IMG/VR virus record: IMGVR_UViG_3300030108_004854
Location: 1-64,000 of that record
Source of the DNA: a virus
Reading direction: 5' to 3' (one strand)
DNA length: 64,000 nt
Numbering within the stretch: the stretch's first letter is position 1; each line of letters starts with the position of its first letter. Below the pieces are notes generated by a model. It did not search any database. It worked only from the letters and a program-made list of their open reading frames with translations, and was not told the origin of the DNA. The position numbers and the translations under genes were made by a program. Shown piece after piece: positions 9,943-27,494 of the stretch.

Positions 9943-9956
9943 AACAGCCAACAGCC
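9943..9956 (+). promoter_or_regulatory. AACAGCCAACAGCC box
   Basis: exact copy upstream of the first early ORF. Confidence 0.65.
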
Positions 9957-10007
9957 GGTTAATGCGTAGAACGAGCGGAGTTACGCCCGCCACACACGGA
10001 GAATCCC

Positions 10008-10298
10008 GTGGCCAACATCCAAACCGCTCCCGCTCCTACCGCCAAGGAAGAGCAGCAAGCTTCCATTCCTCAGGTGTGGAAGATCAAGGAGCACCACATC
10101 GTCGAGCCCATCGTTGATGACGCAGGCAAGACGTGGGTCAAGATCGAGTGGAGCGAGAAGCTTCACCTGTTCTTCGACGTACCTAACGGCGTCAAGGTCG
10201 ACAAGCTCATCGAACAGATGGAGCGCGTCGGTTACATCAACGTCGACAAGAAGGGGTGGTACAAGCGCTACCCCATGGCAGAAGAGATCATCTTCTGA
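10008..10298 (+). CDS. early hypothetical protein
   Basis: 96 aa, GTG start preceded by GGAG, followed by a terminator. Confidence 0.7.
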   Translation: MANIQTAPAPTAKEEQQASIPQVWKIKEHHIVEPIVDDAGKTWVKIEWSEKLHLFFDVPNGVKVDKLIEQMERVGYINVDKKGWYKRYPMAEEIIF

Positions 10299-10312
10299 TC
10301 CAACACTCACCC

Positions 10313-10337
10313 CCCCCGCTTCGGCGGGGGATTTTTT
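10313..10337 (+). terminator. intrinsic terminator
   Basis: CCCCCGC-TTCG-GCGGGGG then ATTTTTT. Confidence 0.85.
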
Positions 10338-10499
10338 ATTGAATACAACAGCCCTTACACAGCCATCACCATGACCAGACTCAATGCCTTCCTGTTTACT
10401 ATCACTGCAGCAGCAATGATGATCACACTTGGTTTCATAACAAGAGAACCATTAGTGGTCACATGCATCACTGAAGGTGATGTAACAACGTGCTCTGCT

Positions 10500-10513
10500 A
10501 ACAGCCAACAGCC
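10500..10513 (+). promoter_or_regulatory. AACAGCCAACAGCC box
   Basis: exact copy followed by TCTTGATTGAT, as at 12828. Confidence 0.65.
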
Positions 10514-10527
10514 TCTTGATTGATTAA

Positions 10528-10558
10528 CCTGGGCATGGCTTAGCCAGTAAGTCCCAGG
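10528..10558 (+). ncRNA. UAAG-bulged hairpin motif A, copy 1
   Basis: CCTGGG-CA-TGGC-TTA-GCCA-G-TAAGT-CCCAGG. Confidence 0.65.
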
Positions 10559-10572
10559 CTATCCACAGACCA

Positions 10573-10656
10573 GAGCGAAAGCTCGAACTGCAGGTTGGTT
10601 CACCTGCTCACTCAAACACCGGAGCGAAAGCTCGAACTGCAGGTTGGTTCACCTGC
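10573..10656 (+). repeat. two identical 35-bp structured direct repeats
   Basis: GAGCGAAAGCTCGAACTGCAGGTTGGTTCACCTGC at 10573-10607 and 10622-10656. Confidence 0.9.
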
Positions 10657-10685
10657 ATTCACAGTACACTTCATCACACTTAACG

Positions 10686-11078
10686 ATGAACATTTTCAAA
10701 GCCGCAACACTCCTTGTACCACAGATCGTCGCTAACTACGACGACGAGACAAGGCACAACAAGGTAGCTGCCACCTGGACCGACCAGGAAGGTTACCGCA
10801 CAACGTACGGCGTGGAGTTCCGCGCAGTACACAACTCAGAACGCATCGCTATCGAGCGAGGCACCAGACAAGAAGACGGTAGCTTTGTCTACGTTGCACC
10901 CAATGGCAACGTTCATACCTGCACCTACGAACGCTTCATGGCCATTGCCAAAGCGCAAGGTGAGCAGGCAATGCACGCACAGTACCGTCGCAATCCACAC
11001 CAGGCTCACTACCAACAAGACACACAATCGCAGGCTTACGAGCGTGTGAATGTGTGGGTACATGAGCCTGCCAACTAA
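10686..11078 (+). CDS. early hypothetical protein
   Basis: ORF of the track (10644..11078); ATG 10686 follows a CATCACAC leader. Confidence 0.7.
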   Translation: MNIFKAATLLVPQIVANYDDETRHNKVAATWTDQEGYRTTYGVEFRAVHNSERIAIERGTRQEDGSFVYVAPNGNVHTCTYERFMAIAKAQGEQAMHAQYRRNPHQAHYQQDTQSQAYERVNVWVHEPAN

Positions 11079-11085
11079 TAACAAT

Positions 11086-11112
11086 GGGTTGCTACGGCGG
11101 CCCTTTCTTTTT
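11086..11112 (+). terminator. intrinsic terminator
   Basis: GGGTTGC-TACG-GCGGCCC then TTTCTTTTT. Confidence 0.75.
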
Positions 11113-11123
11113 ATCTATCCACA

Positions 11124-11348
11124 ATGACTATGGACCTTTACCTAGTAATCCAGTCAACCGATTTCAACGGTGACGGATACTTCCAAGAATTTATTCTTGG
11201 TATCTACGAAGACGGCGATGCAGCTAAACAGGTGCTACATAAACTCATTAAAGAACATGAGGCTGAAGAACCTCATTGCCAAGCTGACATAGATACAGAG
11301 TACTTTATCAAAGAGATGCCACTAATCCCTGCAAAGGTAATCCAATGA
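11124..11348 (+). CDS. early hypothetical protein
   Basis: 74 aa acidic ORF, ATGA-coupled to the next gene. Confidence 0.7.
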   Translation: MTMDLYLVIQSTDFNGDGYFQEFILGIYEDGDAAKQVLHKLIKEHEAEEPHCQADIDTEYFIKEMPLIPAKVIQ

Positions 11349-11683
11349 TTACTACTATCAAGACCTACAAAGACAATGGTCCGTACTTACATCAAGAAAG
11401 GTTTGACTACACAGTCGATAACCTATCTGACTTTATCAAACAAGTACGCACCATCATGGAGAGCCAAGACTCTGATGTCATTGGCGTCTATCACGACGAC
11501 ACATTCATAGGCGGATGGACACAGGAATGTGACTATGAACCCGACTATGAAAATGGCGGATACTACTGCGTATCAGCTGAATACGTCAGACCACAACCAA
11601 ACAGCTTTGACTGGGAGTGCATCAAGAAGTATTGCTTCCATTCAGGCACCCCTGTCAAAACCACCATCGATTCAATCACATGA
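11345..11683 (+). CDS. early hypothetical protein
   Basis: 112 aa, coupled start/stop. Confidence 0.7.
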   Translation: MITTIKTYKDNGPYLHQERFDYTVDNLSDFIKQVRTIMESQDSDVIGVYHDDTFIGGWTQECDYEPDYENGGYYCVSAEYVRPQPNSFDWECIKKYCFHSGTPVKTTIDSIT

Positions 11684-11871
11684 CAACTAACAACATAGAC
11701 AACAAAGTCATCAAGATCACCTGCCGAGATGCCTACGAATATGTAGACATCTTGGAATCAGAGATCAAGATGCTGATCAAGAAAGATATTGTTGGTCCAT
11801 CATTAATCAAACATTATCAAGATCTTCGTGATCGCATAAACATTGCTATCCACACCTATCATCATTCCTAA
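11680..11871 (+). CDS. early hypothetical protein
   Basis: ATG overlaps the previous stop. Confidence 0.6.
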   Translation: MTTNNIDNKVIKITCRDAYEYVDILESEIKMLIKKDIVGPSLIKHYQDLRDRINIAIHTYHHS

Positions 11872-12035
11872 TGACTACCTACAAAATCATTCGCTTCTAT
11901 CACCCATCACAGGGTAAATACAATGAGACAGTTGAGACTGGCCTCACACTAGAAGAAGCCCAAGCATGGTGCAAAGACCCATCCACACGCAAAGACAACA
12001 CGTTCTTTGACGGCTACGAGGAGGAGTACAAATGA
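11871..12035 (+). CDS. small phage protein (GLTLEEAQAWC motif)
   Basis: 54 aa MTTYKIIRFY...GLTLEEAQAWCKDPSTR..., translated by hand, coupled to the previous stop. Confidence 0.65.
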   Translation: MTTYKIIRFYHPSQGKYNETVETGLTLEEAQAWCKDPSTRKDNTFFDGYEEEYK

Positions 12036-12191
12036 ACATCTACAACAATGACGACACAACCAAACGTGACTGCGATATTGTTTACGGTGCATTAACCGTA
12101 AGCACTGCAGTATTATTTCCACCGTTAGCAATTATATCCCTCGGGATGTGGTTTGCCGACAGACAACACTATCCATCACACAATACCAAAG

Positions 12192-12452
12192 ATGACAACA
12201 ACAACTAAACAAATCAGAGAAGAAGCTATTAATAGTGCCATCGAGAAAGATTGGCACGTTGCATCAGAAGGCACTGACTTCACTGCATGTGTTATCGCAT
12301 GGCACAAAGACCCAGCTACTAATTGGTGCCGCGTACTTACTGTTGTTGACGGTCAGTACCAAACAGAAACTATACGTTGCACACCAACAGTTGTTGGTTC
12401 AGGTTATGTAACTGACCATCTCAATGATTTTAAACTTACAACTCAATCATGA
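12192..12452 (+). CDS. early hypothetical protein
   Basis: ORF of the track; likely ATG 12192. Confidence 0.6.
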   Translation: MTTTTKQIREEAINSAIEKDWHVASEGTDFTACVIAWHKDPATNWCRVLTVVDGQYQTETIRCTPTVVGSGYVTDHLNDFKLTTQS

Positions 12453-12561
12453 CAATTCAAATAGTACGTGGTAACAACCTAAAGTACGTTACTGTTGACA
12501 GCTACAAAGCACCGGGCATACGTAATAGTATTGCCCGCTTTATCTTTCACTTATTACACAA

Positions 12562-12780
12562 ATGACTGAACGCAGAACCCAACAACAAGAGCATTTAGTT
12601 CAACCATTGACACAAACTGATGTTCACATGGTTGAACTACTAGCTCAATTACAAGGTGTACTTCCACGCACAGTTATTGAAATTGCATTACATGAATGGC
12701 TTGAAGCTAACTTCATGCGCATTAATTCATTGCATCGTAATGCAAAAGAGATCCACAATCAACTTAATTCAAAAACATGA
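12562..12780 (+). CDS. small hypothetical protein, possibly ribbon-helix-helix
   Basis: 72 aa; the PRTVIEIALHEWLE segment is RHH-like. Confidence 0.5.
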   Translation: MTERRTQQQEHLVQPLTQTDVHMVELLAQLQGVLPRTVIEIALHEWLEANFMRINSLHRNAKEIHNQLNSKT

Positions 12781-12827
12781 AACAACACAAGCACATCCCT
12801 TCTCCTTTCAACAAACAATCTCTAAGT

Positions 12828-12841
12828 AACAGCCAACAGCC
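12828..12841 (+). promoter_or_regulatory. AACAGCCAACAGCC box
   Basis: exact intergenic copy. Confidence 0.65.
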
Positions 12842-12891
12842 TCTTGATTGATAAGTTTTACTTATCATTGCGTACACTTAATCACACCACA

Positions 12892-13194
12892 ATGGACTCT
12901 TCTAAAGAACAACTATCTCGCAAGTCACAAAAAGCAAGATATATACAATATATACAAGTATTAGAGATGCGCATACATTTAGATAAACGTAAAGATAAAT
13001 ATGATTTTGCTGGATTCATTGATGAGTATCATCAGTTATGTATACAAATTGATGCATTATTAAAAATAGTACTTACAGATTTAACAGCAGAAGAAATCAA
13101 AGATGGCTTAGATGAAGTACCACAGGTACGTAGTCTTATTGTCACTAAAGATCTTCAACCAACTACATCTATACACTACACTTCACTCAACTGA
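12892..13194 (+). CDS. early hypothetical protein
   Basis: ATG after an ATCACACCAC leader. Confidence 0.6.
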   Translation: MDSSKEQLSRKSQKARYIQYIQVLEMRIHLDKRKDKYDFAGFIDEYHQLCIQIDALLKIVLTDLTAEEIKDGLDEVPQVRSLIVTKDLQPTTSIHYTSLN

Positions 13195-13198
13195 AACA

Positions 13199-13528
13199 AT
13201 GACAACAATTTCATCACTGCCAATCTGGTATTCAGAACGTAATGCATTTAAGTATCACAACAATTTACATGCATTAGATATGATCTATCTGCATGGTCAG
13301 ATAGAACAAGAAGCAGAATTTGATTTGTTAATGTCACCAAATAATGATGTATCTATCGGTGTTTATCCGGTCATCATTAACATTAACGATACAACTTATG
13401 CTTGTACTGCACATGTTTGGAACAACAGGAGACATGGCAATCGCAAAGGCTTAGTTGTTCTTAACACTGACAAAGAAGCAAGAGAGTATGCACATCTCAA
13501 GTTCATTGAGAAAGCTGATCGTATTTAA
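13199..13528 (+). CDS. early hypothetical protein
   Basis: ORF of the track; likely ATG 13199. Confidence 0.6.
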   Translation: MTTISSLPIWYSERNAFKYHNNLHALDMIYLHGQIEQEAEFDLLMSPNNDVSIGVYPVIININDTTYACTAHVWNNRRHGNRKGLVVLNTDKEAREYAHLKFIEKADRI

Positions 13529-13567
13529 TCACACCACATTAAATCTAATCACATCACATCAAACTCA

Positions 13568-13960
13568 ATGACTGACTCACTACTTGCATGTGTCGGATAT
13601 AACGACGACACCACACAGTTTGAAGAACTAACACTCGATGACAAGATCACTGTCATCTGCAACACAGCAATTAGAAAGATACAAAGAGAATACCCAGATC
13701 AATGCAAAGGATATGTAATTGAACGCCACCAAGGCAAACGGTGGATCAAATTAGTATGCGCGGAAATCTATGAGGATGGTCAACGTCGCAACGGAAGTGT
13801 CTGGGCATTCATTGATCCAGCCACACAAGGGGTCTACAAGCCCGCCAGTTGGAAAGCACCAGCCAAGCATGAGAGATATAACCTAGACGACTTCCAAAGC
13901 TTCTATGACGCCGCACGGATGGCCGATTGGTATGGCTCATGGCTATACCTTAGACACTAA
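13568..13960 (+). CDS. conserved phage hypothetical protein
   Basis: SVWAFID...GVYKPASWKAPAKHERYNL motif seen in cyanophage early proteins. Confidence 0.7.
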   Translation: MTDSLLACVGYNDDTTQFEELTLDDKITVICNTAIRKIQREYPDQCKGYVIERHQGKRWIKLVCAEIYEDGQRRNGSVWAFIDPATQGVYKPASWKAPAKHERYNLDDFQSFYDAARMADWYGSWLYLRH

Positions 13961-13981
13961 GCCGACTAGTACATATGAATT

Positions 13982-14250
13982 ACTACAACATAGTTGTGTA
14001 TCACCATGTACCAGCTATGTTGTAGTTGTTGTGCAATAAAGAGTAGATTTTCTTTATCTATAAAGATCTGTACATTGTGTGCTAGTACATAAGACCCACC
14101 ATATTATTTATATTCTGTACATTTGTAAGTAATTTCTGTACACTTTGTGCTTATTAATTCTTTACATAGCAGTCCCTCACTACAACCACTCACAAATGTA
14201 CAGTTTTCTATATAAATAAAATATATACCCCCCAACTACTCACAACTACA
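13982..14250. repeat. non-coding palindromic element with CTGTACA(T/C)T(T)GT(G) repeats, origin-like
   Basis: direct copies at 14068, 14115 and 14136, inverted copy at 14191, plus a 15-bp hairpin at 13982/14012. Confidence 0.7.
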
Positions 14251-14295
14251 CACAACTCTGTATCAACACGATACATTCATTCTTTAACAAGAAGT

Positions 14296-14309
14296 AACAG
14301 CCAACAGCC
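14296..14309 (+). promoter_or_regulatory. AACAGCCAACAGCC box
   Basis: exact intergenic copy 14 nt before motif A copy 2. Confidence 0.65.
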
Positions 14310-14323
14310 TAATTATTAAGTAT

Positions 14324-14352
14324 CCTGGCATTGCTTGGCATGTAAGCCCAGG
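14324..14352 (+). ncRNA. UAAG-bulged hairpin motif A, copy 2
   Basis: CCTGG-CATTGCTTGGCATG-TAAGC-CCAGG. Confidence 0.65.
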
Positions 14353-14388
14353 TATCCATCACATCACACCACACAACAGGAGACAGTT

Positions 14389-14589
14389 ATGTCCCGCATC
14401 AAAAGCTGGATTCACAACCAACTCGACAAACGAAACATGCTCAGGGAAGACATGTACTACAACGCAGACATCGCTTATGAACTAGAGCAGGCCATGCGTG
14501 AAGAAATGGAAGAACCTCAAAACTCAGAAAATCTAGACATCGACCCTAACACCCAATCAACCAATGAATCAAACAACGTACCATTCTGA
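14389..14589 (+). CDS. acidic early protein ending in VPF
   Basis: ATG after AGGAG; 66 aa. Confidence 0.6.
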   Translation: MSRIKSWIHNQLDKRNMLREDMYYNADIAYELEQAMREEMEEPQNSENLDIDPNTQSTNESNNVPF

Positions 14590-14658
14590 CGAATTCATCA
14601 CGGTAATCATTGCAATCATCGCAACACTATTCACTGTTTTAATCAACAACACAATCAA

Positions 14659-15057
14659 ATGGAAACCATCAACATCCACAACCTACACAACCAAGGACTT
14701 GTTGCCTACATACAACGATACCCTCGTAGTGGAGCAGCAAGATATTTCCTCAACCAATACAAAGTTCACGAAGAATGGGAAGATGAAGAACCAACATCAA
14801 TCAAAATCCACCAGGTCTCGCAAGCCTATGGTGGCCCAGAAGAAGGTGGATGGTGGTACTCGACAGGTGAGGCGCAATCAACTCACTTCATCTTCAGCAA
14901 GAAAGGATGTATCAAGCGATGTATCGAACTCATTGATACCTATAACTTAACGAACCAACCTTCTATTGAAACATCACAAGGTAACTTTGCGTATGAACTT
15001 ACACTAGGCACAGGATACGCAAAAAATTATCCTACAGAACGTCCACATTACGAGTAA
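14659..15057 (+). CDS. early hypothetical protein
   Basis: 132 aa with a YGGPEEGGWWY motif and ending RPHYE. Confidence 0.7.
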   Translation: METINIHNLHNQGLVAYIQRYPRSGAARYFLNQYKVHEEWEDEEPTSIKIHQVSQAYGGPEEGGWWYSTGEAQSTHFIFSKKGCIKRCIELIDTYNLTNQPSIETSQGNFAYELTLGTGYAKNYPTERPHYE

Positions 15058-15063
15058 TCAGTA

Positions 15064-15102
15064 CTGGGCATTGTATTTTCCCCGACTACATGTAAGGCCC
15101 AG
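15064..15102 (+). ncRNA. UAAG-bulged hairpin motif A, copy 3
   Basis: CTGGG-CATTGTA..TACATG-TAAGG-CCCAG. Confidence 0.65.
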
Positions 15103-15126
15103 AGAATCACATCACCTTTAATTACC

Positions 15127-15345
15127 ATGCCTAATCGCTATCGTGTCAAGTACAAACATGATCCACCGCCAAATCCTATCCCCGGTGAAAATTACACTGT
15201 TGGTGCAGGTATCTGGTCTGCCAACATTCGTGCCCATGACATTGATGATGCACGACATCAGATCCTGAAGAACTTTCCTTACAAAAGAGCTGATGGAAAG
15301 ATAGTCAACAGAATCATTGTATCCTGTCGCAAAATCTACTACTGA
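15127..15345 (+). CDS. early hypothetical protein
   Basis: 72 aa after motif A and an ACATCAC leader. Confidence 0.65.
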   Translation: MPNRYRVKYKHDPPPNPIPGENYTVGAGIWSANIRAHDIDDARHQILKNFPYKRADGKIVNRIIVSCRKIYY

Positions 15346-15348
15346 CTC

Positions 15349-15675
15349 ATGCCTAAAAACATCGTTCCAGATGAAACTCCGTCACCTGACGACCTACAAG
15401 GACTATATGGACTCGCTCAAGCTACAAAGAAGTTTGTCGAGCAAGGCACACCACCAGCTTTTGCTGTCTTTATTAATCCAAAGACTGGCAAAACTTATTG
15501 CACTACTCCAGCACAACTTGAAGGTGGTACTGCACCAGATCAAAAGACTATTGACGCCTTAATCAAAACCATTAACATCAATGACCCGAATTCAACAGCA
15601 CGTCTTCAACAGGGAAGCAGTGAGCAGGAGGGGAGGAGCCCCGACGTACGGGATAACGGAGACACCAAAACGTAA
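15349..15675 (+). CDS. early hypothetical protein
   Basis: 108 aa ORF. Confidence 0.55.
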   Translation: MPKNIVPDETPSPDDLQGLYGLAQATKKFVEQGTPPAFAVFINPKTGKTYCTTPAQLEGGTAPDQKTIDALIKTININDPNSTARLQQGSSEQEGRSPDVRDNGDTKT

Positions 15676-15849
15676 GCGTCCTAAATCTAAAGGAAATCTA
15701 ATGTTACTTAAGGAGTTGAATGAGCGAATCAGTTGACCACTACATCGAGTACAGAGATGACATCATGCGTATCTGCCGTGAGTATCAACTAGAAACTCGT
15801 TGCAGTAATGCATTAGTTGCATCGATGTTAATGGATCTAGCACACCGCA

Positions 15850-16128
15850 TTGAAATTAATGACAAAGCGATCTGCCTTCAACTTTGACAAAGACATCTTC
15901 GGTTTTAATGTAACCGAGCATGGCATCAAAAGCTACAGTAAATCATTTAAGGTTGGTCCATTTAGACAAACGATCAACCTTAATCTTGGCAATGGTCATG
16001 TAAAAGGTACGACATCGATACCTGGCACAGGCTTAGCCAAACGCTACAATATCAGTGACAAAGACTGGCATGACTGGTTTCCGGAAGAGCCTGACTTTGG
16101 ACACAAGCCTCCCATGTGGGAGGAGTAA
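15850..16128 (+). CDS. DUF4236-like protein
   Basis: SFKVGPFRQTINL...TTSIPGTGL resembles the DUF4236 pattern. Confidence 0.5.
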   Translation: MKLMTKRSAFNFDKDIFGFNVTEHGIKSYSKSFKVGPFRQTINLNLGNGHVKGTTSIPGTGLAKRYNISDKDWHDWFPEEPDFGHKPPMWEE

Positions 16129-16140
16129 CAGCCAACAGCC
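16127..16140 (+). promoter_or_regulatory. AACAGCCAACAGCC box
   Basis: exact copy 8 nt before motif B copy 1. Confidence 0.65.
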
Positions 16141-16148
16141 TGGTTGTT

Positions 16149-16175
16149 AGACCTAGGCAAGTCTTTAAACTGTTG
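16149..16175 (+). ncRNA. small H-type pseudoknot motif B, copy 1
   Basis: AGAC-CT-AGGCA-A-GTCT-TTAAAC-TGTTG. Confidence 0.55.
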
Positions 16176-16195
16176 TACACAACACCACATCACAC

Positions 16196-16465
16196 ATGGC
16201 GTACATCACTGATAGACAACAAGACTTCATCATCACTTTGTACAAAAGAGTAGATGAAATTCACTTGTTAGCTTCCAAGCTAGACATGCATGATCCACAG
16301 CGGCTCAAATATTCTGGTGCTGCTGATGAGCTGCTGCGACTTTCTGATCGACTGAAACTTCAGTGGTTGCAAGAAGCTGAGTTACTGGAATCAGTAAAAC
16401 AACAAATTACTGATGAACCAATCCCATCTATTACACCAGAGGAAGAGTATGCAATCAATGCCTGA
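16196..16465 (+). CDS. early hypothetical protein
   Basis: 89 aa ORF. Confidence 0.65.
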   Translation: MAYITDRQQDFIITLYKRVDEIHLLASKLDMHDPQRLKYSGAADELLRLSDRLKLQWLQEAELLESVKQQITDEPIPSITPEEEYAINA

Positions 16466-16748
16466 AGTAATTACTGTACACAACTGCGAGCTTGACATTC
16501 GTGATCTGGATTACGGCACTAGTTCTTGGATCGTGTCTGCAACCGTTGCTGACATGCAATTGGTACGGCCTGCTGTCATGCATCCTGCTGACATAGCTGA
16601 GCCAGAAGAGCGTGGACCTGCACAATGCAGTGCCATCTTTGAACTAGATGAAGTATCAGGTGATGAACAACCACCTAACGATCCAGTTGCCCTTCGTCAA
16701 TACATTCAAGATATGAATCTTGATTGGGACATAGACGAAGAAAACTAA
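16458..16748 (+). CDS. acidic hypothetical protein
   Basis: ORF of the track; likely ATG 16458. Confidence 0.65.
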   Translation: MPEVITVHNCELDIRDLDYGTSSWIVSATVADMQLVRPAVMHPADIAEPEERGPAQCSAIFELDEVSGDEQPPNDPVALRQYIQDMNLDWDIDEEN

Positions 16749-16753
16749 CCAAT

Positions 16754-16780
16754 AGACCTGAGCATGTCTTTAAACTGCTC
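16754..16780 (+). ncRNA. small H-type pseudoknot motif B, copy 2
   Basis: AGAC-CT-GAGCA-T-GTCT-TTAAAC-TGCTC. Confidence 0.6.
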
Positions 16781-16805
16781 TTACTACATCACACCAAACT
16801 ACACA

Positions 16806-18638: not shown

Positions 18639-18640
18639 CT

Positions 18641-18694
18641 GAGATTTAGGCAGCCGAGTAACAATGTTGTTGCGTCAGGCGTAAGCCCTATCTC
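18641..18694 (+). ncRNA. UAAG-bulged hairpin motif A, copy 4, directly 5' of the tRNA
   Basis: GAGA-TT-TAGG-CAGCC...GGCG-TAAGC-CCTA-TCTC. Confidence 0.55.
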
Positions 18695-18697
18695 ATT

Positions 18698-18785: not shown

Positions 18786-18805
18786 ATCATTTATTACACA
18801 ACACT

Positions 18806-18982: not shown

Positions 18983-19104
18983 CCAGCACCAGGAAACTAC
19001 AAAAACTGATGCTCCCTCAGGACTGACGTAGTTCTTCTGCGTCCCAACACATTCTAAATACATTTGTCTATGCATTGTAAACTCAGCCCGTCGATTTATT
19101 TTCC

Positions 19105-20498: not shown

Positions 20499-20670
20499 AG
20501 ATGCACTTGATCTGATCTACAAAGGTCAAACCAACGTAGCTGTCATGGCAAAAAAAGTAGGCGTCTCATTAGATGAAATGAAACGCCTGTTTGGTTATTA
20601 CGTTAGTCAGCGACCTATTGATCCAGATGTATGGCAAGCTGATGTAAAACCAAGCTGGCCCTGGGCTTAA
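20488..20670 (+). CDS. small HTH-like protein
   Basis: 60 aa, NVAVMAKKVGVSLDEMKR. Confidence 0.6.
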   Translation: MQLEDALDLIYKGQTNVAVMAKKVGVSLDEMKRLFGYYVSQRPIDPDVWQADVKPSWPWA

Positions 20671-20823
20671 TTACTTAAGCCGTTTACGATCTAATTTGGC
20701 TTGGAACTTTTCACGTTCCTGTTTAATTTCATCCCTTGATACCCAAACCGAATGGATTGAATTCAATGTCGGGCTGGTACGTTCGTACTTAACGCCTCGA
20801 TAAGTCAGTGTCTTGGTAGACAT
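20671..20823 (-). CDS. DUF4278-family small protein
   Basis: 50 aa MSTKTLTYRGVKYER..., translated by hand; LTYRGVxY signature, GGAGG SD, riboswitch upstream. Confidence 0.85.
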   Translation of the reverse strand: MSTKTLTYRGVKYERTSPTLNSIHSVWVSRDEIKQEREKFQAKLDRKRLK

Positions 20824-20839
20824 GATGTCCTCCGCTAAA

Positions 20840-20892
20840 ACCTAGACCCCGTTCCCTGTCTAGTGAATTGCGCCCCAGTGGGGTGAACGTAC
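20840..20892 (-). ncRNA. Downstream-peptide motif (glutamine-II riboswitch)
   Basis: minus strand CGTTCA-CCCC-ACT-GGGG-CGCA-ATTCA-CTAGAC-AG-GGAACG-GG-GTCTAG; CGTTC/GAACG and CTAGAC/GTCTAG pairings; precedes a YRG peptide. Confidence 0.85.
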
Positions 20893-20946
20893 TTGTATTT
20901 TATCACTCATCTTAGAATGAACAAAGCACCTGTTTCAAAGATCACA

Positions 20947-23106
20947 ATGTCAATAGAAAGAGATCCGTACACTGGTGAAATAACTTATTACAATGACGCT
21001 ACTGGAGCTGAAATAACTGAAGCTGAGCATAACTTAGAGCGAGACCGCCAGGCACGTTCAGCAGGTTATGAATCATTTTATGATTACGTACGTCAGGTGC
21101 AAAGAGATATGGAGGAAGAAGCATCGGCATTCATGGAAGACGGTATACCAGATACACTGGATGCACAGGATTTTGAAAGAGCTGCTCTTGATCAACAACA
21201 ACTACAACAACAAGCAGATTTTATAGATCGGCTTGGTCTTAATGATCCACCCCGTGTAAATATGCAGGAGTTAACTCCTGATAACGTATACGAAATGCGT
21301 CAGCTTGGTTTTAATAGTGCACAAGTTTCAGATGCTATTGAACGAAGAAGCAGACAATTAGATGAAGCAGGTGTATCAGCTGAGGAAAGAAACTATAGAG
21401 CAAGAGGTTACGTCGGCAATGACAGATATTTATCTGGAACAGGTGAAGGTCAAACCCTACGGTTTCTTGATCCTGAAATGCAAGCACGTTTTGAAGCAGA
21501 TGTAGCAGCCGAAGAACAACGAATAAGACAAGAAAATAAACCTATCAATCGAGCACGTAGAACCTTAGCTGGAGTCAGAAATAATGTTATAGATTTTCCA
21601 CGGCAAACTGGCCTTTTACTTAATCAAGTTACTGATCGCATTGATGATAACATCACTCAAGTTGTTAGAGGCTATAGAAACATTCTTGATTTAGATCGTC
21701 CTGTTTATGATCCAAAATACCTTCCTGAAGGTGCTAACCCTGACTTTAATTACTACACACAACTACTAGAAGATTCACGTATAGGTTATTCACCTAGCAA
21801 TAAAATTAGAACTAATTTAATGTTACAACCTGATGGGCGTGGATATGATTTTAGCTTTCAAGGTCCAGAAGGTTTTGCAGATTCAAAGAAATTAAAAATT
21901 CAAAATCAAAGAACAGAAGACCTTATTGCAGGCAAGAAACAATATATAGCAGACTTGTATCGCAATAATGAAAAGGCTACTCATTCTATGACTCCTTTTA
22001 AAGATAGAATTGATCAAGAAAACCGAAAGATTAGAGATTATAGATATCGTATTAATTACAATAAGGATAAAATTAATACGATGAAATCACCTACCTATCA
22101 ACCCACTTTGGGTTACATGATAGGAACAGAACTAGATAAAGTAAAACCTGGAGAATACTTTAGTCAAAATCCTATAGGTGGACCAGGAGGTCAAAGAGAT
22201 AAATTGTATAGCAGAATGAGCAAAGGAGTATTGAAAGCTCAACCTTTTGGTTATGCAAAAGTACAACGTATAAATCCAACCACTTGGTTGCGTGATGATG
22301 TACCAATGGAATGGGACCCAGGAACTTTAAAAGACCCTGCAATACGAAAAGCATTTGGTGTACCCAAAGAAACCGATGTATCTATCTACCGTGATAGAAC
22401 AATGTTTGAGCAACCTATTTATCAAAAAGGCGGACCTCTTTCTTCAGGAAAAACAGCAGTCGCTCTTGGTTCGCATGAGTTTAGACTGCCACGTGCTCTT
22501 AGTAATGCAACATTAGGTGGCCTGTATGAATCTATACCATCTGCAGAAGTTATTAAAGCAACTGGTGAAGAAGGCATAGGTGCTGGTATTAAAACATATG
22601 CAAGTGAAATTATGGAAGGATTGCCTTACATGGCAGGTTTAGCTGGTGCTACTTATGTAGTTCCTGCATTAGCAAGTGTTGCACCACCAGTTCTTGGTGG
22701 ACTGGGCGTGTATGAAGCTGGTCGTTCTGTCAATGAATTAAGTAGACAAACAACAGGTGAAACTGCATTATCTAAACTTCAGCAAACAGCAGGCAAGGTA
22801 GCGCCAGGTGTCTTAGGTAAACCATCAACTGGTTCTGCTTATAGATATAACGAAGATGCTAGAGCAAAAGAAGAAAGGTTAAGAAAAATTGCAAGTGGTG
22901 AACTTGTTGAGCCAATCCCACAATTAAATGCTTATACCCCCTTACCAATTTCAATGGTTACTAGACCTCAACAAGAACTAGATGCTTATAGAGATCAACA
23001 GCCAACTGCATCTAACCCATTGGTTCAACGCATCCAACTTGCAGGTAAAAGATTCAATCCAGCTAGAGGTGAGTTTGGTTTAACTGAATTGTTTTTTGGA
23101 CAATAA
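20947..23106 (+). CDS. large hypothetical protein, virion-like composition
   Basis: about 720 aa; Gly/Ala hydrophobic C-terminal segments; start moved from 20893. Confidence 0.7.
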   Translation: MSIERDPYTGEITYYNDATGAEITEAEHNLERDRQARSAGYESFYDYVRQVQRDMEEEASAFMEDGIPDTLDAQDFERAALDQQQLQQQADFIDRLGLNDPPRVNMQELTPDNVYEMRQLGFNSAQVSDAIERRSRQLDEAGVSAEERNYRARGYVGNDRYLSGTGEGQTLRFLDPEMQARFEADVAAEEQRIRQENKPINRARRTLAGVRNNVIDFPRQTGLLLNQVTDRIDDNITQVVRGYRNILDLDRPVYDPKYLPEGANPDFNYYTQLLEDSRIGYSPSNKIRTNLMLQPDGRGYDFSFQGPEGFADSKKLKIQNQRTEDLIAGKKQYIADLYRNNEKATHSMTPFKDRIDQENRKIRDYRYRINYNKDKINTMKSPTYQPTLGYMIGTELDKVKPGEYFSQNPIGGPGGQRDKLYSRMSKGVLKAQPFGYAKVQRINPTTWLRDDVPMEWDPGTLKDPAIRKAFGVPKETDVSIYRDRTMFEQPIYQKGGPLSSGKTAVALGSHEFRLPRALSNATLGGLYESIPSAEVIKATGEEGIGAGIKTYASEIMEGLPYMAGLAGATYVVPALASVAPPVLGGLGVYEAGRSVNELSRQTTGETALSKLQQTAGKVAPGVLGKPSTGSAYRYNEDARAKEERLRKIASGELVEPIPQLNAYTPLPISMVTRPQQELDAYRDQQPTASNPLVQRIQLAGKRFNPARGEFGLTELFFGQ

Positions 23107-23109
23107 AAG

Positions 23110-23136
23110 CTAGGCATCTTTATGTGTAAGTCCTAG
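23110..23136 (+). ncRNA. UAAG-bulged hairpin motif A, copy 5
   Basis: CTAGG-CA..TG-TAAGT-CCTAG. Confidence 0.65.
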
Positions 23137-23155
23137 ACTACGCTTTATTTTATCC

Positions 23156-23581
23156 ATGCTTCCTGAAAATCAATTTCATTCCAATCAACCAATGCCGAAG
23201 CCTGCACCAGCAACTATTGATGTTGACAGGACTAAATACTATGACACTCAAGGTGTTGTAGACAGAACATTTATGAGTCGTTTTAGCATCATAAAAGCTG
23301 TAAAGAATGGTCGATTCCCTGCTCCAGAATTTAAAAAACAACGTCATTGCTTTTATTGCAAAAAGAAAGTAGATCAATGGATAGCAGATAATCCAAATTT
23401 TACTAACCTTCCTACACCAAGAACAACTACTACGCTTAATGTAACTTTTTCTGCAGCAGAATTAAAAATGATTAGTAATGCAGCTAAAGCATTGGGTTGT
23501 ACAGTAGATTTTTTTGTTGCAGATGCAACACTCTGGAAAGCCCGTGGCGTAAAAAAACGATTAGAATATGAAAATAATTAA
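23156..23581 (+). CDS. AlpA/excisionase-like DNA-binding protein with RHH-like C-terminus
   Basis: MSRFSIIKAVKNGRFPAP...VDQWI, then LNVTFSAAELKMISNAAKALG. Confidence 0.6.
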   Translation: MLPENQFHSNQPMPKPAPATIDVDRTKYYDTQGVVDRTFMSRFSIIKAVKNGRFPAPEFKKQRHCFYCKKKVDQWIADNPNFTNLPTPRTTTTLNVTFSAAELKMISNAAKALGCTVDFFVADATLWKARGVKKRLEYENN

Positions 23582-23634
23582 GGGGTTGCAATAAATAATA
23601 AATACCGTAGTCTTCTAAAAGATTCAACAAAACA

Positions 23635-23865
23635 TTGAGTTATTTAATTACTACGGTTATAAATGGTATTCCCCATGCTATTTATCCAAATTCAAATGCT
23701 GGTAAGTTTGAACTAATACAGATAGTAAAAGACAGTGAGATTTCAAAAGCTTTCTGTTCTCCAACTAAAACTGGTGCTGTTCAAATTCTTAATTGGATAA
23801 ATAAAAATGACCAACAGCTTTCATTACAAGAACTCTCAGTTCAACCTGAAGCCAAATTCCTTTAA
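23635..23865 (+). CDS. hypothetical protein
   Basis: 76 aa, TTG start. Confidence 0.5.
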   Translation: MSYLITTVINGIPHAIYPNSNAGKFELIQIVKDSEISKAFCSPTKTGAVQILNWINKNDQQLSLQELSVQPEAKFL

Positions 23866-25666
23866 TGAAAACTATCTCGTTTTTGATATTGAAACAAACG
23901 GATTATACGATGAAGCAACAGAGTTATTTTGCGTGGCAATACACGATGTCGTACGAAACGAAACTATTGGTTATGGGCCTGGGTCTATTGATAGGGCTAT
24001 TGACAGGTTGGCTTCTGCTACTTGTCTTATCGGTCACAATATAATTTTTTATGATTTACCAGTATTAAAAAAGTTACTAGACTTTAACACCACATCTCAT
24101 GTCATTGACACACTCATCTGCACCAGGCTCATTTGGCCCAAAGAAAAATTACAAGAAGTCGATACAGATCACTACCAAAATGTGCCACCTAAGCTCAGAG
24201 GGTCAGCCTCACTTAAGGCTTGGGGCTACAGACTTGGTAACTTCAAAGACAATTTTACCGATTTTTCTGCGTTCACCCCAGAAATGTTGGAGTACTGTAA
24301 ACAAGATTGTAATGTCACAACCTCTTTATACCACCTCATCACCACTGACCCAATCAAAGCTTCGGCTCTTCGGCTGGAACATGATTTCGCTCAAGCAATT
24401 AATAAACAAATTAGATCAGGCTTTCCTTTTGATACTAATCAATGTTTTAATTTTGTGGATGAACTTGAAGCTAGAAAAAAAATAGTTGAAACAGAACTTA
24501 CTACTAAAGCATTTCCTCCAATTCAACATGAAGAAATCGTAACACCAAAAGCATCAAACAAAACAAAAGGAATCATCAAGGGAGTGCCTTACACTAAAGT
24601 TACTGTTGAACATTTCAATCCTGCTTCACGACAACAAACAGTACGTCGTCTCCAAGATAAGTACGGCTGGGTACCAGAGGCAACAACAGAGAAAGGAAAT
24701 CCAATCTTAAATGATGATGTTCTTTCTCAACTTCCATACCCTGAAGCCAAGCTATTGGCTGAGTATCAGCTGCTAAAGAAACGTCTAGGACAGATCAAAG
24801 ATGGAGACAATGCATGGCTCAAACTTGTTGGTGACGATGGCAAAATGCACGGCGATCTTATTACCAATGGTTGTATCACCGGTCGTGCTAGCCATCGAAC
24901 TCCGAACATGGGGCAGATCCCAGCAGTTTATTCACCTTATGGTGATAGATGTCGTTCGTTATTTGGTCCCCCTCCTGGCCGCATTTTATTGGGTGCTGAT
25001 GCTAAGGCATTGGAACTTCGCTGCTTGGCTGGTTACTTAGCACTATGGGACGGCGGCGAGTATGGCGAAGTTGTCACTGATGACAGCCAAGACATTCACA
25101 CTTACAACCAACAACGATTCGGAGTTACTACACGTGACATTTCAAAACGACTACTCTACGCCGTACTTTACGGAGCTGGCTTCATCAAAGCCGGTACAAT
25201 CGTGGACCCAAAAGAAAAAAATCCCGACAAGCTTAAGCAGTTGGGAAGAGAAGCAATCATGGGTTTCATGGAAGGCGTCCCAGCGCTCCAAAAACTTAAA
25301 GCGACGCTCAAATCTAATCTTGAAAAGCGTGGGCACCTTATTGGTCTTGACCGTAGGCCTTTGTACTGTCGCTCTGAATTCAAGGCCTTAAATGTATTGC
25401 TTCAATCTGCTGGCGCAATTATCATGAAACAAGTTGTGGTTAATCTGCATCAGCTAACAGCTAACAGCCAATTAATATATGGATCTGATTGGGAACAACA
25501 CGCCATGATTCATGATGAAGTTCAGTTGTCTGTGCAACCAGATTTAGTACAGACAATTAAACCTCTGGTATTGGAATCATTTTTAAAAGCAGGAACGTTC
25601 TATGATTTCAAGTGTCTCATTGAAGGAGACATTAAAACAGGAGCTAACTGGGCATTGACACATTGA
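23807..25666 (+). CDS. polA: DNA polymerase family A (T7-like) with 3'-5' exonuclease
   Basis: exonuclease motifs FDIET, GHNIIFYD, YCKQD; polymerase motifs DAKALELR, RDISKRLLYAVLYGAG, IHDEVQ. Confidence 0.95.
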   Translation: MTNSFHYKNSQFNLKPNSFNENYLVFDIETNGLYDEATELFCVAIHDVVRNETIGYGPGSIDRAIDRLASATCLIGHNIIFYDLPVLKKLLDFNTTSHVIDTLICTRLIWPKEKLQEVDTDHYQNVPPKLRGSASLKAWGYRLGNFKDNFTDFSAFTPEMLEYCKQDCNVTTSLYHLITTDPIKASALRLEHDFAQAINKQIRSGFPFDTNQCFNFVDELEARKKIVETELTTKAFPPIQHEEIVTPKASNKTKGIIKGVPYTKVTVEHFNPASRQQTVRRLQDKYGWVPEATTEKGNPILNDDVLSQLPYPEAKLLAEYQLLKKRLGQIKDGDNAWLKLVGDDGKMHGDLITNGCITGRASHRTPNMGQIPAVYSPYGDRCRSLFGPPPGRILLGADAKALELRCLAGYLALWDGGEYGEVVTDDSQDIHTYNQQRFGVTTRDISKRLLYAVLYGAGFIKAGTIVDPKEKNPDKLKQLGREAIMGFMEGVPALQKLKATLKSNLEKRGHLIGLDRRPLYCRSEFKALNVLLQSAGAIIMKQVVVNLHQLTANSQLIYGSDWEQHAMIHDEVQLSVQPDLVQTIKPLVLESFLKAGTFYDFKCLIEGDIKTGANWALTH

Positions 25667-25680
25667 CATGTAAGCCCCAG
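25648..25680 (+). ncRNA. UAAG-bulged hairpin motif A, copy 6
   Basis: CTGGG-CAT..ATG-TAAGC-CCCAG spanning the polA stop. Confidence 0.65.
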
Positions 25681-25711
25681 ATCCTACAATCACATCACAC
25701 TATTAAAAACA

Positions 25712-26428
25712 ATGCACATTGCATTTCTTGTCGCTGAAGTCGTTGACAATCCACTGACTAAATATCAGGGGATGGACAATCGAATGAATGTTGTATCTCT
25801 TCGTTTACCTGCTGTAGGTAAAAAGAAAGTTGACACATTAATTGAATACAGGTCTTACAAAGAGATTAATCTTAGAGCGGGAGACTGTGTCCAAATTATG
25901 GATGCATCCATTCGCCACGATTACAAAACTAGAGAATGGTGGTTGATGGGAGGCAATCTTGAACGACGTGAAGCACCATGTCCTCCATACAACTATTGCA
26001 TATTTAGTGGTCGTGTGATCAAAGATCTAGATGTATCTGATCCACGCCAGTTTACTAGTACAGAAAGTGGTTTTCTTATTGCTAAAACCACACTCAGTAT
26101 TACAGCTGGTGGAGGTGAATCAGATTTAATTCCAATTACTGCAATCAATTCATCTGATGCTAAATACAAACCAGCTCAATTATTAGCTGATATGGCAGCA
26201 CGTAAAGGAATGGGTTTAACAGTTAGAGGAACATTAGTTACTGATTCTTGGACAGACAAAGAATCTGGAGAGATTAGATATAAAACCGAAATTATGTTAA
26301 AAGGTTTTACCATGGCTCCTAAAGCTAAAGCTCAAGAAATTAAACCACGTGCTGAAGTGCCTGTTGGTGCGGAACCAAAGTCACTTTGGAAACCGTTAGA
26401 CAGTGAGGATGACAACGATCCTTTTTGA
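25712..26428 (+). CDS. ssb: single-stranded DNA-binding protein (tandem OB-fold-like)
   Basis: KGMGLTVRGTLVTDSWTDKESGEIRYKTEI; acidic tail EDDNDPF. Confidence 0.75.
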   Translation: MHIAFLVAEVVDNPLTKYQGMDNRMNVVSLRLPAVGKKKVDTLIEYRSYKEINLRAGDCVQIMDASIRHDYKTREWWLMGGNLERREAPCPPYNYCIFSGRVIKDLDVSDPRQFTSTESGFLIAKTTLSITAGGGESDLIPITAINSSDAKYKPAQLLADMAARKGMGLTVRGTLVTDSWTDKESGEIRYKTEIMLKGFTMAPKAKAQEIKPRAEVPVGAEPKSLWKPLDSEDDNDPF

Positions 26429-26443
26429 AGCTATACTTCCAGC

Positions 26444-26476
26444 CTAGGCATTTGCCCTTGTCAATGTAAGCCCTAG
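26444..26476 (+). ncRNA. UAAG-bulged hairpin motif A, copy 7
   Basis: CTAGG-CATT..AATG-TAAGC-CCTAG. Confidence 0.65.
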
Positions 26477-26498
26477 ATCCCACGTCCACTAAAGTCGT

Positions 26499-27494
26499 AT
26501 GACCTCCACGATGACCAAACGCACAGCCGCAGATTTTGCAATGTTTAAAAGCCCAGAATTTATTTCTGGCTATAAGAGCATGGCAACACTGCAACCACTA
26601 AATCAAACCGACACTCACGGTCTGTTTCTGCAGAACAAAGACATTGATGTCTGCAAGTGGACAGCCAAACAGTCTGACTTCGAGAAAGGCTCAGTCCTTA
26701 TCGATTACGAACACACGTTCGGAAACAACAAAACTCCTGATCAAGGCATCTTGTTAATCAAACCCAAGATTCAGGTGCTTTGGCGTTCACCTCTGATGGT
26801 GCAGGAACGATTTGGTAAAGGTTCAGGCCTCAACCAGATCATTGGATCATTTAATGATCCATCCACCAAAGAGCTATGGAATACAGACAAGACTAAGGCT
26901 GAAGCTGATCCCAAGTACGAGCGTATGTACCAAAGCCGAACTTTGTATCTGGTAATGGTACTCAAAAAAAATCGTACTCGTGCTCATAAACTACCTATTG
27001 TTCTGACCACAAAAGGATTAGCAGCAGTCCAGATCTCTCAGAACCTCAAGCACTTTGAGGAGATGATGGGATACACCATGGACAAGTTCACTGGTGCAGC
27101 CGTGCCTCAGGTGTGGAACGAACAGTTTTTCAGCACCACGGTGTGGCAGCCAACATTTGTTCGTAAACGGGCAGGTGAACGCAAGAACGAAATCTGTGGT
27201 ATTGAGTGTTGCGAAGCACCAGACTTCAGTGATGAAGATTCAGCATTCGCATCTATTGACGCAATGACAATTCCAACAGAGGATCGAGAATCTACATGGA
27301 AAATGATGACCGATTATGAGGGATTCATTGCCATGCACTCAGCACAAAACGTCAACCAACTTGGTGGTGCGTATGGTCTCAAGCAAGGAGTAGAAATACT
27401 TCCTGCTTCCAGGGGTACAGACAAGTCAGATGAAGCTGTTGATTTAACAGCAACATCAGGACGAGACAGCCTAGGAGCTGACTCTAGCTTGTGA
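26499..27494 (+). CDS. DUF5895-like protein
   Basis: 331 aa; PKIQVLWRSPL...LYLVMVL...HKLPIVLTTKG pattern, next to ssb. Confidence 0.5.
   Translation: MTSTMTKRTAADFAMFKSPEFISGYKSMATLQPLNQTDTHGLFLQNKDIDVCKWTAKQSDFEKGSVLIDYEHTFGNNKTPDQGILLIKPKIQVLWRSPLMVQERFGKGSGLNQIIGSFNDPSTKELWNTDKTKAEADPKYERMYQSRTLYLVMVLKKNRTRAHKLPIVLTTKGLAAVQISQNLKHFEEMMGYTMDKFTGAAVPQVWNEQFFSTTVWQPTFVRKRAGERKNEICGIECCEAPDFSDEDSAFASIDAMTIPTEDRESTWKMMTDYEGFIAMHSAQNVNQLGGAYGLKQGVEILPASRGTDKSDEAVDLTATSGRDSLGADSSL

Follow-up and report, generated by a model that had tools for sequence, protein, structure and literature searches.

The rightward early and replication block of a marine cyanophage genome (about 10–27 kb in the window, by which we mean the whole stretch analysed here, the 64,000 nucleotides (nt) at positions 1 to 64,000 of IMG/VR record IMGVR_UViG_3300030108_004854) is punctuated by compact RNA folds that lie between translation units. 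Two classes were studied, a hairpin (motif A) and a predicted pseudoknot (motif B), and motif B shares its stem and spacer sequence and its predicted pseudoknot topology with coremin, an RNA element of plant viruses. From sequence and placement we lean, with slightly less than even confidence, towards reading these folds as directional mechanical-block RNAs at cistron boundaries that would protect or insulate the leaders downstream of them.

Genome and comparison set

The source record comprises 73,064 bases and has a completeness estimate of 93%. To judge by its sequence, the window belongs to an S-EIV1-like marine cyanophage: its family A DNA polymerase (pol; 23807–25666) shares 58.5% identity with its counterpart in Synechococcus phage S-EIV1, the top match among 2,848 phage records, and genes for ThyX, ssb and a primase–helicase are recognized. 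The first 41 nt of its tRNA-Leu (18696–18736) match an unannotated stretch of Prochlorococcus phage P-SSP7 at 95%, as would fit a marine picocyanobacterial host, and we infer that the host is cyanobacterial. A search for sequencing runs containing this phage listed none of RNA, a result that bears neither way on its expression. Alignment of the polymerase with IMG/VR gave 140 loci, of which 80 (58–67% identity) were kept; together with S-EIV1 (L008) they make up the 81 relatives' loci. Covariance models were scanned against the window and these loci (1.55 Mb, both strands) at E values (E) of up to 0.1.

Motif B folds as a predicted pseudoknot

A scan for repeated words brought up GCATGACGTTAAACTGC in many of the relatives, at places where closer relatives carry motif A; the motif B of the original prediction, which had been made from the letters of the window, is the window's version of this word. 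The consensus, NGWC-CU-RRGCA-U-GWCN-UUAAAC-UGCYY, contains a 5-base-pair (bp) stem, RRGCA/UGCYY (stem 2, S2), that encloses an 11-nt loop, and the four bases 5′ of this stem pair with the loop (stem 1, S1, NGWC/GWCN). From this predicted pairing, motif B is an H-type pseudoknot whose third loop (L3) is UUAAAC. S1 occurs as CGUC/GACG, AGAC/GUCU (the form in the window), GGAC/GUCC, UGUC/GACA and AGUC/GACU, and S2 is found among relatives also in RGGUA/UGCCU variants.

Among 55 distinct copies found by pattern, 99.1% of S1 and 95.3% of S2 is paired; the search pattern left the S1 columns free, and one non-member match (L014:6570–6599, minus strand) was dropped from the alignment. The covariance model of motif B (R2) gave 285 matches, all 285 of them on the strand of the polymerase gene, seven being in S-EIV1. 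In the 93 distinct rows among the 150 best R2 matches, 98.3% of cells are paired (S1 99.2%, S2 97.6%), and S1 covaries, with pair 2–17 occurring as CG, AU, GC and UA and pair 4–15 as UA and AU. The same rows hold 43 G·U cells and 14 unpaired cells; in S2 alone, G·T occurs 20 times as against 3 times for A·C. This G·U asymmetry, together with the pseudoknot, indicates that the sense strand folds, in other words the RNA.

Motif A is a covarying hairpin

Motif A has the consensus CURGG-CA-[variable stem]-GUAAGY-CCYAG, and its copies in the window hold 9 to 28 nt in the middle. An outer helix of 5–6 bp is followed by an invariant C–G pair and an A, a variable inner stem and, on the 3′ side, an invariant bulge, UAAGY. 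The outer arms covary among relatives (CTGGG/CCCAG, CTAGG/CCTAG, CTTGG/CCAAG, CATGGG/CCCATG, ACCAGG/CCTGGT and others). A covariance model (R1) built from 27 equal-length copies of relatives only, with which the window was scanned with filters off, recovered six window copies, each on the + strand and with E between 6.5e-6 and 0.029, the next match having E of 0.64. Over the window and the 81 loci, 152 of 152 R1 matches lie on the polymerase strand, two of them in S-EIV1.

Pairing in 120 distinct aligned rows reaches 92.7% of cells versus 79.6% in shuffles, in an alignment of matches that was fitted to R1 and so favours the structure; the ungapped, equal-length seed alignment agrees. Pair 4–68 occurs as GC (85), AU (27), UA (6) and GU (2) and is never unpaired, pairs 10–58 and 11–57 covary too, and none of 500 shuffles reached the observed covariation score. 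In IMG/VR a strict pattern for motif A was found in 90 stretches, mostly contigs of 20–85 kb, many of which are the contigs of the polymerase relatives. No relevant Rfam family was found over copies of A, B or the coremin-type element described below at E of up to 10; as regards Rfam, this bears out the original prediction, which recognized no described system.

Placement, leaders and exchange

Both motifs start directly after an upstream stop codon, at a median distance of 6 nt (A) and 5 nt (B), and are followed by a start codon at a distance that is constrained at least as tightly. An ATG of an open reading frame (ORF) of at least 40 amino acids (aa) lies within 90 nt of 130 of the 150 A matches (median 26 nt; 5–95% range 19–32 nt); 14 more stand 2–7 nt before tRNA-Leu, and six have neither. 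For motif B, 90 of 92 pattern matches (none of them on the opposite strand) have such an ATG within 90 nt, at a median of 22 nt. Of 3,000 random positions, 292 have an ATG-ORF at 19–32 nt. The intervening leaders contain 4.1% (A) and 5.2% (B) G, compared with 21.2% overall, and Shine–Dalgarno-like words of the GGA/GAG type occur in their last 20 nt in 5 of 130 cases for A and in none of 90 for B.

In the window, copies run from 10528 to 26477, all on the + strand as had been claimed (for A, by the R1 scan), and the list of copies that lack an upstream box in the original prediction is correct. A leader and an ATG follow, as it described, at seven of the eight copies that precede mRNAs, in which the ATG comes after 18–36 nt and the leader has 0–4 G; motif A at 10528, where the gap is 127 nt, stands apart. 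Between that copy and its ATG, at 10570–10660, lies a private 49-nt tandem duplication that is absent from the 81 relatives' loci, and each copy of it contains the hairpins GAGC-GAAA-GCUC and GCAGGU-UGGUUC-ACCUGC.

The classes are interchangeable. Genes that are preceded by A in some relatives have B before their orthologues in others, and the 66 ssb-like genes are preceded by B (46), A (7), an element of canonical coremin type (1) or none of these (12). By pattern, 25 of the 58 tRNA-Leu genes that relatives have on the polymerase strand are accompanied by an A-like copy at no more than 25 nt. Five whole records, two of which are complete and carry terminal repeats, each have their matches in one segment of 12–20 kb on one strand, the sole exceptions being three weak matches (E 0.03–0.1). 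With covariation in both motifs and swaps before orthologous genes, the claim that these are genuine, interchangeable structured RNA elements in phage gene leaders has been upheld.

The further suggestion that the motifs mark the 5′ ends of primary transcripts fared less well: because they begin directly past a stop codon and the sequence 5′ of them is coding, with no common promoter-like motif, primary 5′ ends are unlikely at these places. Sites resembling σ70 promoters are not enriched in the window (26, versus 42.9 in shuffles). Nor do A and B look like intrinsic terminators, in which a U-tract follows a GC-rich hairpin: terminator-like sites were found at 10313 and 11086, none coinciding with a copy of A or B, and the 3′ flanks of both motifs are mixed C, A and U.

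Relation of motif B to coremin

A literal text search with the loop of motif B led to coremin, GUCCGAAGACGUUAAACUAC, an RNA of plant viruses that consists of a 4-bp first hairpin (hp1), a loop of the form YGAD or, when six-membered, YGNNAD, an A-rich spacer and a second hairpin (hp2), and that stalls Xrn1 and also scanning ribosomes (PMC10520033, PMC6546385, PMC10321173). Its three-dimensional structure is described in the same papers as unsolved; a pseudoknot has been hypothesized in which loop nucleotides 6 and 7 would pair with spacer nucleotides 20 and 19, and this is clearer in a selected Watson–Crick variant (PMC10520033, PMC6546385, PMC10321173).

Aligned with coremin, the B consensus agrees at the hp1 stem and at 12 of the 13 positions of GACGUUAAACUAC, that is, at 16 of 17 stem and spacer positions. 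Coremin calls for a first stem of 3–5 bp of the form (C)GUC/GAC(G), with structure counting over sequence, and S1 is such a stem, 99.1–99.2% paired. The spacer UUAAACUAC, with its essential adenines, has its counterpart in UUAAAC plus U, invariant in all 55 distinct B copies; thereafter B has an invariant G and usually a C where coremin has A and C. The loop is of a different kind, being 8 nt long (C-U-R-R-G-C-A-U) with Y first and A-D last. Pairing between loop and spacer is present as the 5-bp S2, 95–98% paired with four covarying pairs, and because S2 begins at the equivalent of U19, motif B would realize the proposed coremin topology with five canonical pairs.

A canonical coremin-type element occurs among the relatives as well. 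In one locus (L032), GUCCGAAAUGACGUUAAACUAC lies directly after the polymerase gene and 22 nt before the ssb ATG and is a canonical hexaloop coremin; a second locus (L356) has the like. The hexaloop CGAAAU of both, which is found also in phage locus L158, fits the YGNNAD consensus.

Our literature search found no report that links coremin or exonuclease-resistant RNA (xrRNA) with phages or bacteria, and in the literature consulted coremin-type RNAs appear to have been known from no source other than plant and fungal RNA viruses. A search of the S-EIV1 literature at the level of titles gave nothing on such motifs. A survey catalogue contains about 8,500 unnamed structure candidates from IMG/VR and its main text mentions neither coremin nor xrRNA; A or B may be among these unnamed candidates (PMC10690425).

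Occurrence beyond S-EIV1-like phages

A query for the B core, with 20 bases specified, found it in at least 118 stretches of IMG/VR, including contigs of 100–150 kb unlike S-EIV1, and in 99 stretches of bacterial genomes or metagenome-assembled genomes, where by our own arithmetic about one would be expected by chance. Among the bacteria concerned are Omnitrophota, Planctomycetes, Clostridia, Negativicutes, Desulfobacterota-type lineages, Nitrospirae, Saccharibacteria and a Lyngbya. The presence of one core across unrelated phages and many phyla implies that its activity is intrinsic or that its partner is universal.

In bacteria, 55 of 86 examined matches to B come after, or overlap with, a tiny ORF ending in ..RPVAHC[KS]EGC.., and the stop codon of the ORF is often a UGA inside B. 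The ORF reads M..YMLRPVAHCKEGC.. or MKRFMIPRVAHCSEGC.. and is found in many anaerobic phyla (loci L235–L314, for example, L282:6024–6111). Its peptide is absent from Pfam, NCBIfam and Rfam, and the peptide strings were not found in a literature search. The genes 3′ of the ORF and B include those for Rrf2, hemerythrin-like, superoxide-reductase-like, flavodoxin-like and metal-ATPase proteins, as named from their N termini, with one Pfam check.

The hexaloop form of coremin was found in at least 104 IMG/VR stretches, including Enterococcus phages; the temperate Enterococcus phages SEsuP-1, VEsP-1 and Efs 1-1-1 have a hexaloop coremin-type match with no annotation beneath it. In these phages, in L395 (5860–6010) and in about 20 near-identical IMG/VR loci, the element, of the canonical hexaloop type (GUCCGAAAUGACGUUAAACUA), is sited directly past an intrinsic terminator.

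Some loci from larger phage contigs that carry B also hold self-cleaving ribozymes of the Pistol (L123, L125 and L217), Twister-P5 (L173, L191, L206 and L217) and RAGATH-5 (L168 and L175) classes, and several B copies (L179, L201 and L221) are followed by a hammerhead-like CUGAUGA...GAAAC core that scores below the Rfam gathering scores. In two loci of other phages (L155 and L190), B stands 5 nt before a tRNA.

A private box beside some of the motifs

The original prediction centred on a DNA box, AACAGCCAACAGCC, proposed there to act as promoter or activator site ahead of the structured RNA. The window holds five exact copies of it, all on the + strand (Table 1), and two copies with one mismatch, at 9759 (AACAGCCAACGGCC) and at 25456, within the pol gene. 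At up to two mismatches there are 9 matches, compared with a mean of 0.46 in 100 shuffles, none of which reaches 9; in the full record of 73,064 bases, searches at up to one mismatch give 7 forward matches and 0 reverse ones. The three spacings between box and motif (14 nt to A at 10528, 14 nt to A at 14324 and 8 nt to B at 16149) were found as described. They concern three of the five exact copies; those at 9943 and 12828 lead to an ATG and to a different hairpin, respectively.

Among relatives the picture changes. The exact box is absent from all 81 relatives' loci, and the 16-mer TAACAGCCAACAGCCT was found in 28 single-copy stretches of IMG/VR, none with a copy of A or B directly downstream. 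Nor do relatives have a private word of their own beside their motifs that would be analogous to the box; their repeated 12-mers were examined as analogues and rejected, being start/stop junctions, ends of paralogues or iterons. Folding of box and motif together gave no consistent structure (Z-scores +0.47 to −1.5), and only the copy at 16127 pairs with its own flank. Co-occurrence of box and motifs across related phages, on which the original prediction had staked itself beforehand, is thus not conserved as regards the box, and, with the box private to this one genome, nothing supports its acting as a promoter or activator for the system. The box is real and non-random here, yet lies outside the conserved module; by analogy with stoperators, it is possibly a DNA site for a phage protein.

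What the folds may do

In our preferred reading, A and B would act within RNA as directional mechanical blocks that halt 5′-to-3′ exonucleolytic decay coming from the upstream cistron, the candidate enzyme in a cyanobacterial host being RNase J, and that may additionally halt ribosomes coming from upstream. The downstream cistron would thus keep an intact, unstructured leader, with the fold as a built-in 5′ stabilizer or insulator. Among the functions that the original prediction offered, 5′ protection is the one that we infer from the sequences and prefer. Precedent for the bacterial side comes from a flavivirus xrRNA, which is reported to block bacterial RNase J1 in vitro (PMC5760640).

Several observations weigh against a mechanical block of this kind. 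Motif A resembles no known exonuclease-resistant RNA, and a comparison of its two strands does not tell sense from antisense (minimum free energy −11.84 sense and −11.57 antisense, p 0.12; 74 and 78 G·U pairs). Motif B has a U in its loop where YGAD/YGNNAD demands G, and its S2 is followed by a leader of 20–35 nt (about 5% G) and the ATG, with no conserved hairpin. In the plant system, hp2 after the spacer is reported to be needed for Xrn1 resistance (PMC6546385, PMC10321173). The folds are restricted to the early and replication module, whereas a general stabilizer would help late genes too; the A copies 2–7 nt before a tRNA are not obviously accounted for by 5′ protection; and the bacterial tiny ORF that overlaps B suggests a translation-linked role that may differ from protection against decay.

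As an alternative, the folds may be punctuation for processing or for protection of 3′ ends. An endonuclease of host or phage would cut beside the fold, or else RNase P or a ribozyme a short way downstream of it, and the fold would shield the 3′ end of the upstream RNA from 3′-exonucleases, in the manner of T7 RNase III sites. The start of the folds at a median of 5–6 nt past the upstream stop codon would suit such a role, as would A before tRNA-Leu (14 of 150 model matches; 25 of 58 polymerase-strand tRNAs by pattern), B before the tRNAs of two other phage loci and the Pistol, Twister-P5 and RAGATH-5 ribozymes in larger phage loci with B. Coremin-type folds are, however, reported as blocks in the 5′-to-3′ direction (PMC10520033). 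With 10–11 bp, both motifs fall short of the length of a classical RNase III substrate, and the spacing to the downstream ATG is held no less tightly than that to the upstream stop. We also know of no nuclease that recognizes A or B, and on balance we regard this explanation as unlikely.

Another alternative is a regulon of translational operators, in which a phage protein, such as the SSB (the case of T4 gene 32) or a RegA-like repressor, would nucleate on A or B and spread over or block the leader, so timing or shutting off early and replication genes. It would account for a pseudoknot or hairpin with an unstructured leader some 22–26 nt before the AUG, for the confinement of the motifs to the early and replication module and for the presence of A, B or the coremin-type element before 54 of 66 ssb-like genes; the survey mentioned above lists unnamed candidate structures that lie 5′ of gp32 genes in phages, with a citation of the T4 gene 32 pseudoknot (PMC10690425). 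An identical B core in unrelated phages and many bacterial phyla argues against a lineage-specific protein partner, however, A copies stand directly before tRNAs, and no candidate RNA-binding regulator is found among the window proteins recognized with Pfam and PHROGs. This explanation seems to us quite unlikely.

That the motifs are promoters, hairpin promoters included, of a phage-specific RNA polymerase with transcripts starting at or after them is highly improbable: the halves of A, TGGGCA ... GTAAG, do coincide with the ends of ATTGGGCACCCGTAA, the promoter of the Syn5 RNA polymerase, after which comes G at +1 (PMC3950665), and the matches are strictly oriented with genes and sited before genes and tRNAs, but the middle of A ranges widely in length and shows the covariation of a stem, in contrast to a duplex consensus of fixed length, the B pseudoknot is rich in G·U pairs, a feature of RNA, PF00940 is unmatched in the 73-kb record (control genomes gave no match either), the motif RxxxKx(6-8)YG occurs in the DNA polymerase only, and there is no gene for a giant virion polymerase, the largest ORF having 1097 aa. 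Searches of the large ORFs for RNA polymerase with Pfam, PHROGs and Protein Data Bank (PDB) sequences gave nothing and those with Atlas no usable lead, and scans for polymerase motifs returned only DSDGD, in a 568-aa ORF.

Features of the window

Coordinates of the motifs, the box and the tRNA are collected in Table 1.

Table 1 Motif copies, box copies and tRNA in the window, counted from its first letter
Feature	Position	Strand	Evidence and context
Box, one mismatch (AACAGCCAACGGCC)	9759..9772	+	Pattern
Box, exact	9943..9956	+	ATG 5 nt later; GC-rich gene with Shine–Dalgarno sequence from 10008
Box, exact	10500..10513	+	Motif A 14 nt downstream
Motif A	10528..10558	+	R1 25.3 bits, E 3.3e-4; atypical 127-nt gap to ATG 10686
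Box, exact	12828..12841	+	Followed by a different hairpin, GATAAGT-TTT-ACTTATC (~12850–12866), and ATG 12892
Box, exact	14296..14309	+	Motif A 14 nt downstream
Motif A, one G–C pair shorter	14324..14352	+	R1 17.8 bits, E 0.029; ATG 14389 preceded by AGGAGA
Motif A	15063..15103	+	R1; 5 nt past upstream stop, 23 nt before ATG 15127
Box, exact	16127..16140	+	Motif B 8 nt downstream; first two bases complete the TAA stop of the upstream ORF
Motif B	16149..16175	+	S1 AGAC/GUCU, S2 AGGCA/UGUUG; G-free 20-nt leader to ATG 16196
Motif B	16754..16780	+	S1 AGAC/GUCU, S2 GAGCA/UGCUC; E 3.5e-8; 5 nt past upstream stop, G-free 25-nt leader to ATG 16806
Motif A-type, long inner part (36-nt middle)	18645..18692	+	Pattern only, missed by R1; 5 nt before tRNA-Leu
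tRNA-Leu, anticodon TAA	18698..18785	+	Matches Rfam tRNA at gathering score
Motif A	23109..23137	+	R1 31.9 bits; 2 nt past upstream stop, 18 nt before ATG 23156
Motif A	25647..25681	+	R1; overlaps pol stop codon (25664–25666); G-free 30-nt leader to ssb ATG 25712
Motif A	26443..26477	+	R1; ends 21 nt before ATG 26499

Several other features were seen. In the stretch 10008–10340, a 96-aa GC-rich gene has a GTG start and a Shine–Dalgarno-like GGAGA, and after it comes, at 10313, a strong intrinsic terminator (CCCCCGCTTCGGCGGGGG and a T-run); as its composition is unlike that of its neighbours, which have no Shine–Dalgarno sequences, the gene may have been acquired. The stretch 14040–14290, 5′ of the box at 14296, is AT-rich and non-coding, contains four to five TGTACA palindromes and a TATATAAATAAAATATATA run, and looks like a regulatory or promoter region amid the early block.

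Rfam 15 at gathering score matched, in the window, only the tRNA and a Glutamine-II riboswitch aptamer (20841–20892, − strand, 44.3 bits against a gathering score of 33). The aptamer, on the other strand from the early genes, precedes a 50-aa ORF (20671–20823, − strand), an arrangement seen also in one relative (L013); owing to its strand, it was ruled out as a marker that would place the hairpin within a 5′ untranslated region (UTR). An iteron-like tandem array, TTGTCTGGCA × 9.5 with a period of 11/21, occupies 32143–32243, and one relative (L009) has a comparable array, TGTCTGGCTA, of about 10 copies at 1044–1135, immediately 5′ of a copy of motif B; such arrays may be an origin or bind a protein. 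Three large ORFs, at 6053–9142 (−), 20917–23106 (+) and 56641–59934 (−), encode 1029, 729 and 1097 aa and have no assignment in Pfam, PHROG, PDB-sequence or Atlas searches; an unusual polymerase might conceivably be among them.

Implications

Joined together, our proposals would make coremin-type pseudoknots an old and widespread module of phages and bacteria, with three interchangeable classes in phages, a fold that is settled and a leader device in bacteria; as a whole this is tentative, and we doubt that all of its parts will hold. If they did, folds that block exonucleases and ribosomes would not be a speciality of plant RNA viruses, and, as far as our literature search goes, the elements described here would be the first coremin-type RNAs in DNA phages and bacteria, tying bacterial 5′-to-3′ decay by RNase J to a countermeasure known only from eukaryotic RNA viruses. 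S-EIV1-like phages would use at least three classes (hairpin A, the Watson–Crick pseudoknot B and the canonical hexaloop coremin) as parts for cistron boundaries that render each message, although without a Shine–Dalgarno sequence, resistant to decay and independent of context, which would explain how a polycistronic early region can be built from exchangeable parts with G-free leaders.

The natural covariation of B, with hundreds of variants and their compensatory changes, supports the pseudoknot model for coremin and would settle its disputed fold as an H-type pseudoknot. In anaerobes, the fold and the tiny ORF ending in ..RPVAHC[KS]EGC.. would be an undescribed leader device before genes for redox and metal stress. 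The elements suggest compact, portable insulator or stabilizer parts for cyanobacterial synthetic biology and, as the cultured relative S-EIV1 carries them (seven B and two A model matches), the idea is directly testable.

Comparison with known systems

The box recalls the stoperators of cluster A mycobacteriophages in being a short, asymmetric, genome-specific site in many copies, with one orientation relative to transcription, in short intergenic gaps and sometimes overlapping stop codons; it differs in that there are only 5–7 copies, confined to 6.4 kb, and no repressor has been identified. The 5′ half of the Pistol ribozyme, which has a hairpin, an AAA linker and a loop pseudoknot, resembles motif B, with a hairpin followed by GUUAAA and a loop that pairs downstream, whereas B has no P2, P3 or cleavage site and is missed by the Rfam Pistol model. 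T7 RNase III sites and the promoter–stem-loop (PeSL) cassettes of T4-type phages likewise place repeated structures in short early or middle gaps between small ORFs, but no σ70-type half lies upstream of A or B, the folds are too small, and B is predicted to be a pseudoknot. [quoted passage not shown] Whereas coremin lies in the 3′ UTR of RNA viruses and meets Xrn1, motif B lies in the mRNAs of double-stranded DNA phages and of bacteria, between stop codon and AUG, where the enzyme would be bacterial RNase J and its resistance is a prediction; and B has no downstream hp2, and its loop, CURRGCAU, is one of 8 nt that gives the 5-bp canonical S2. Across these differences in setting, the two share the 4-bp hp1 CGUC/GACG and the A-rich spacer UUAAAC followed by U.C.

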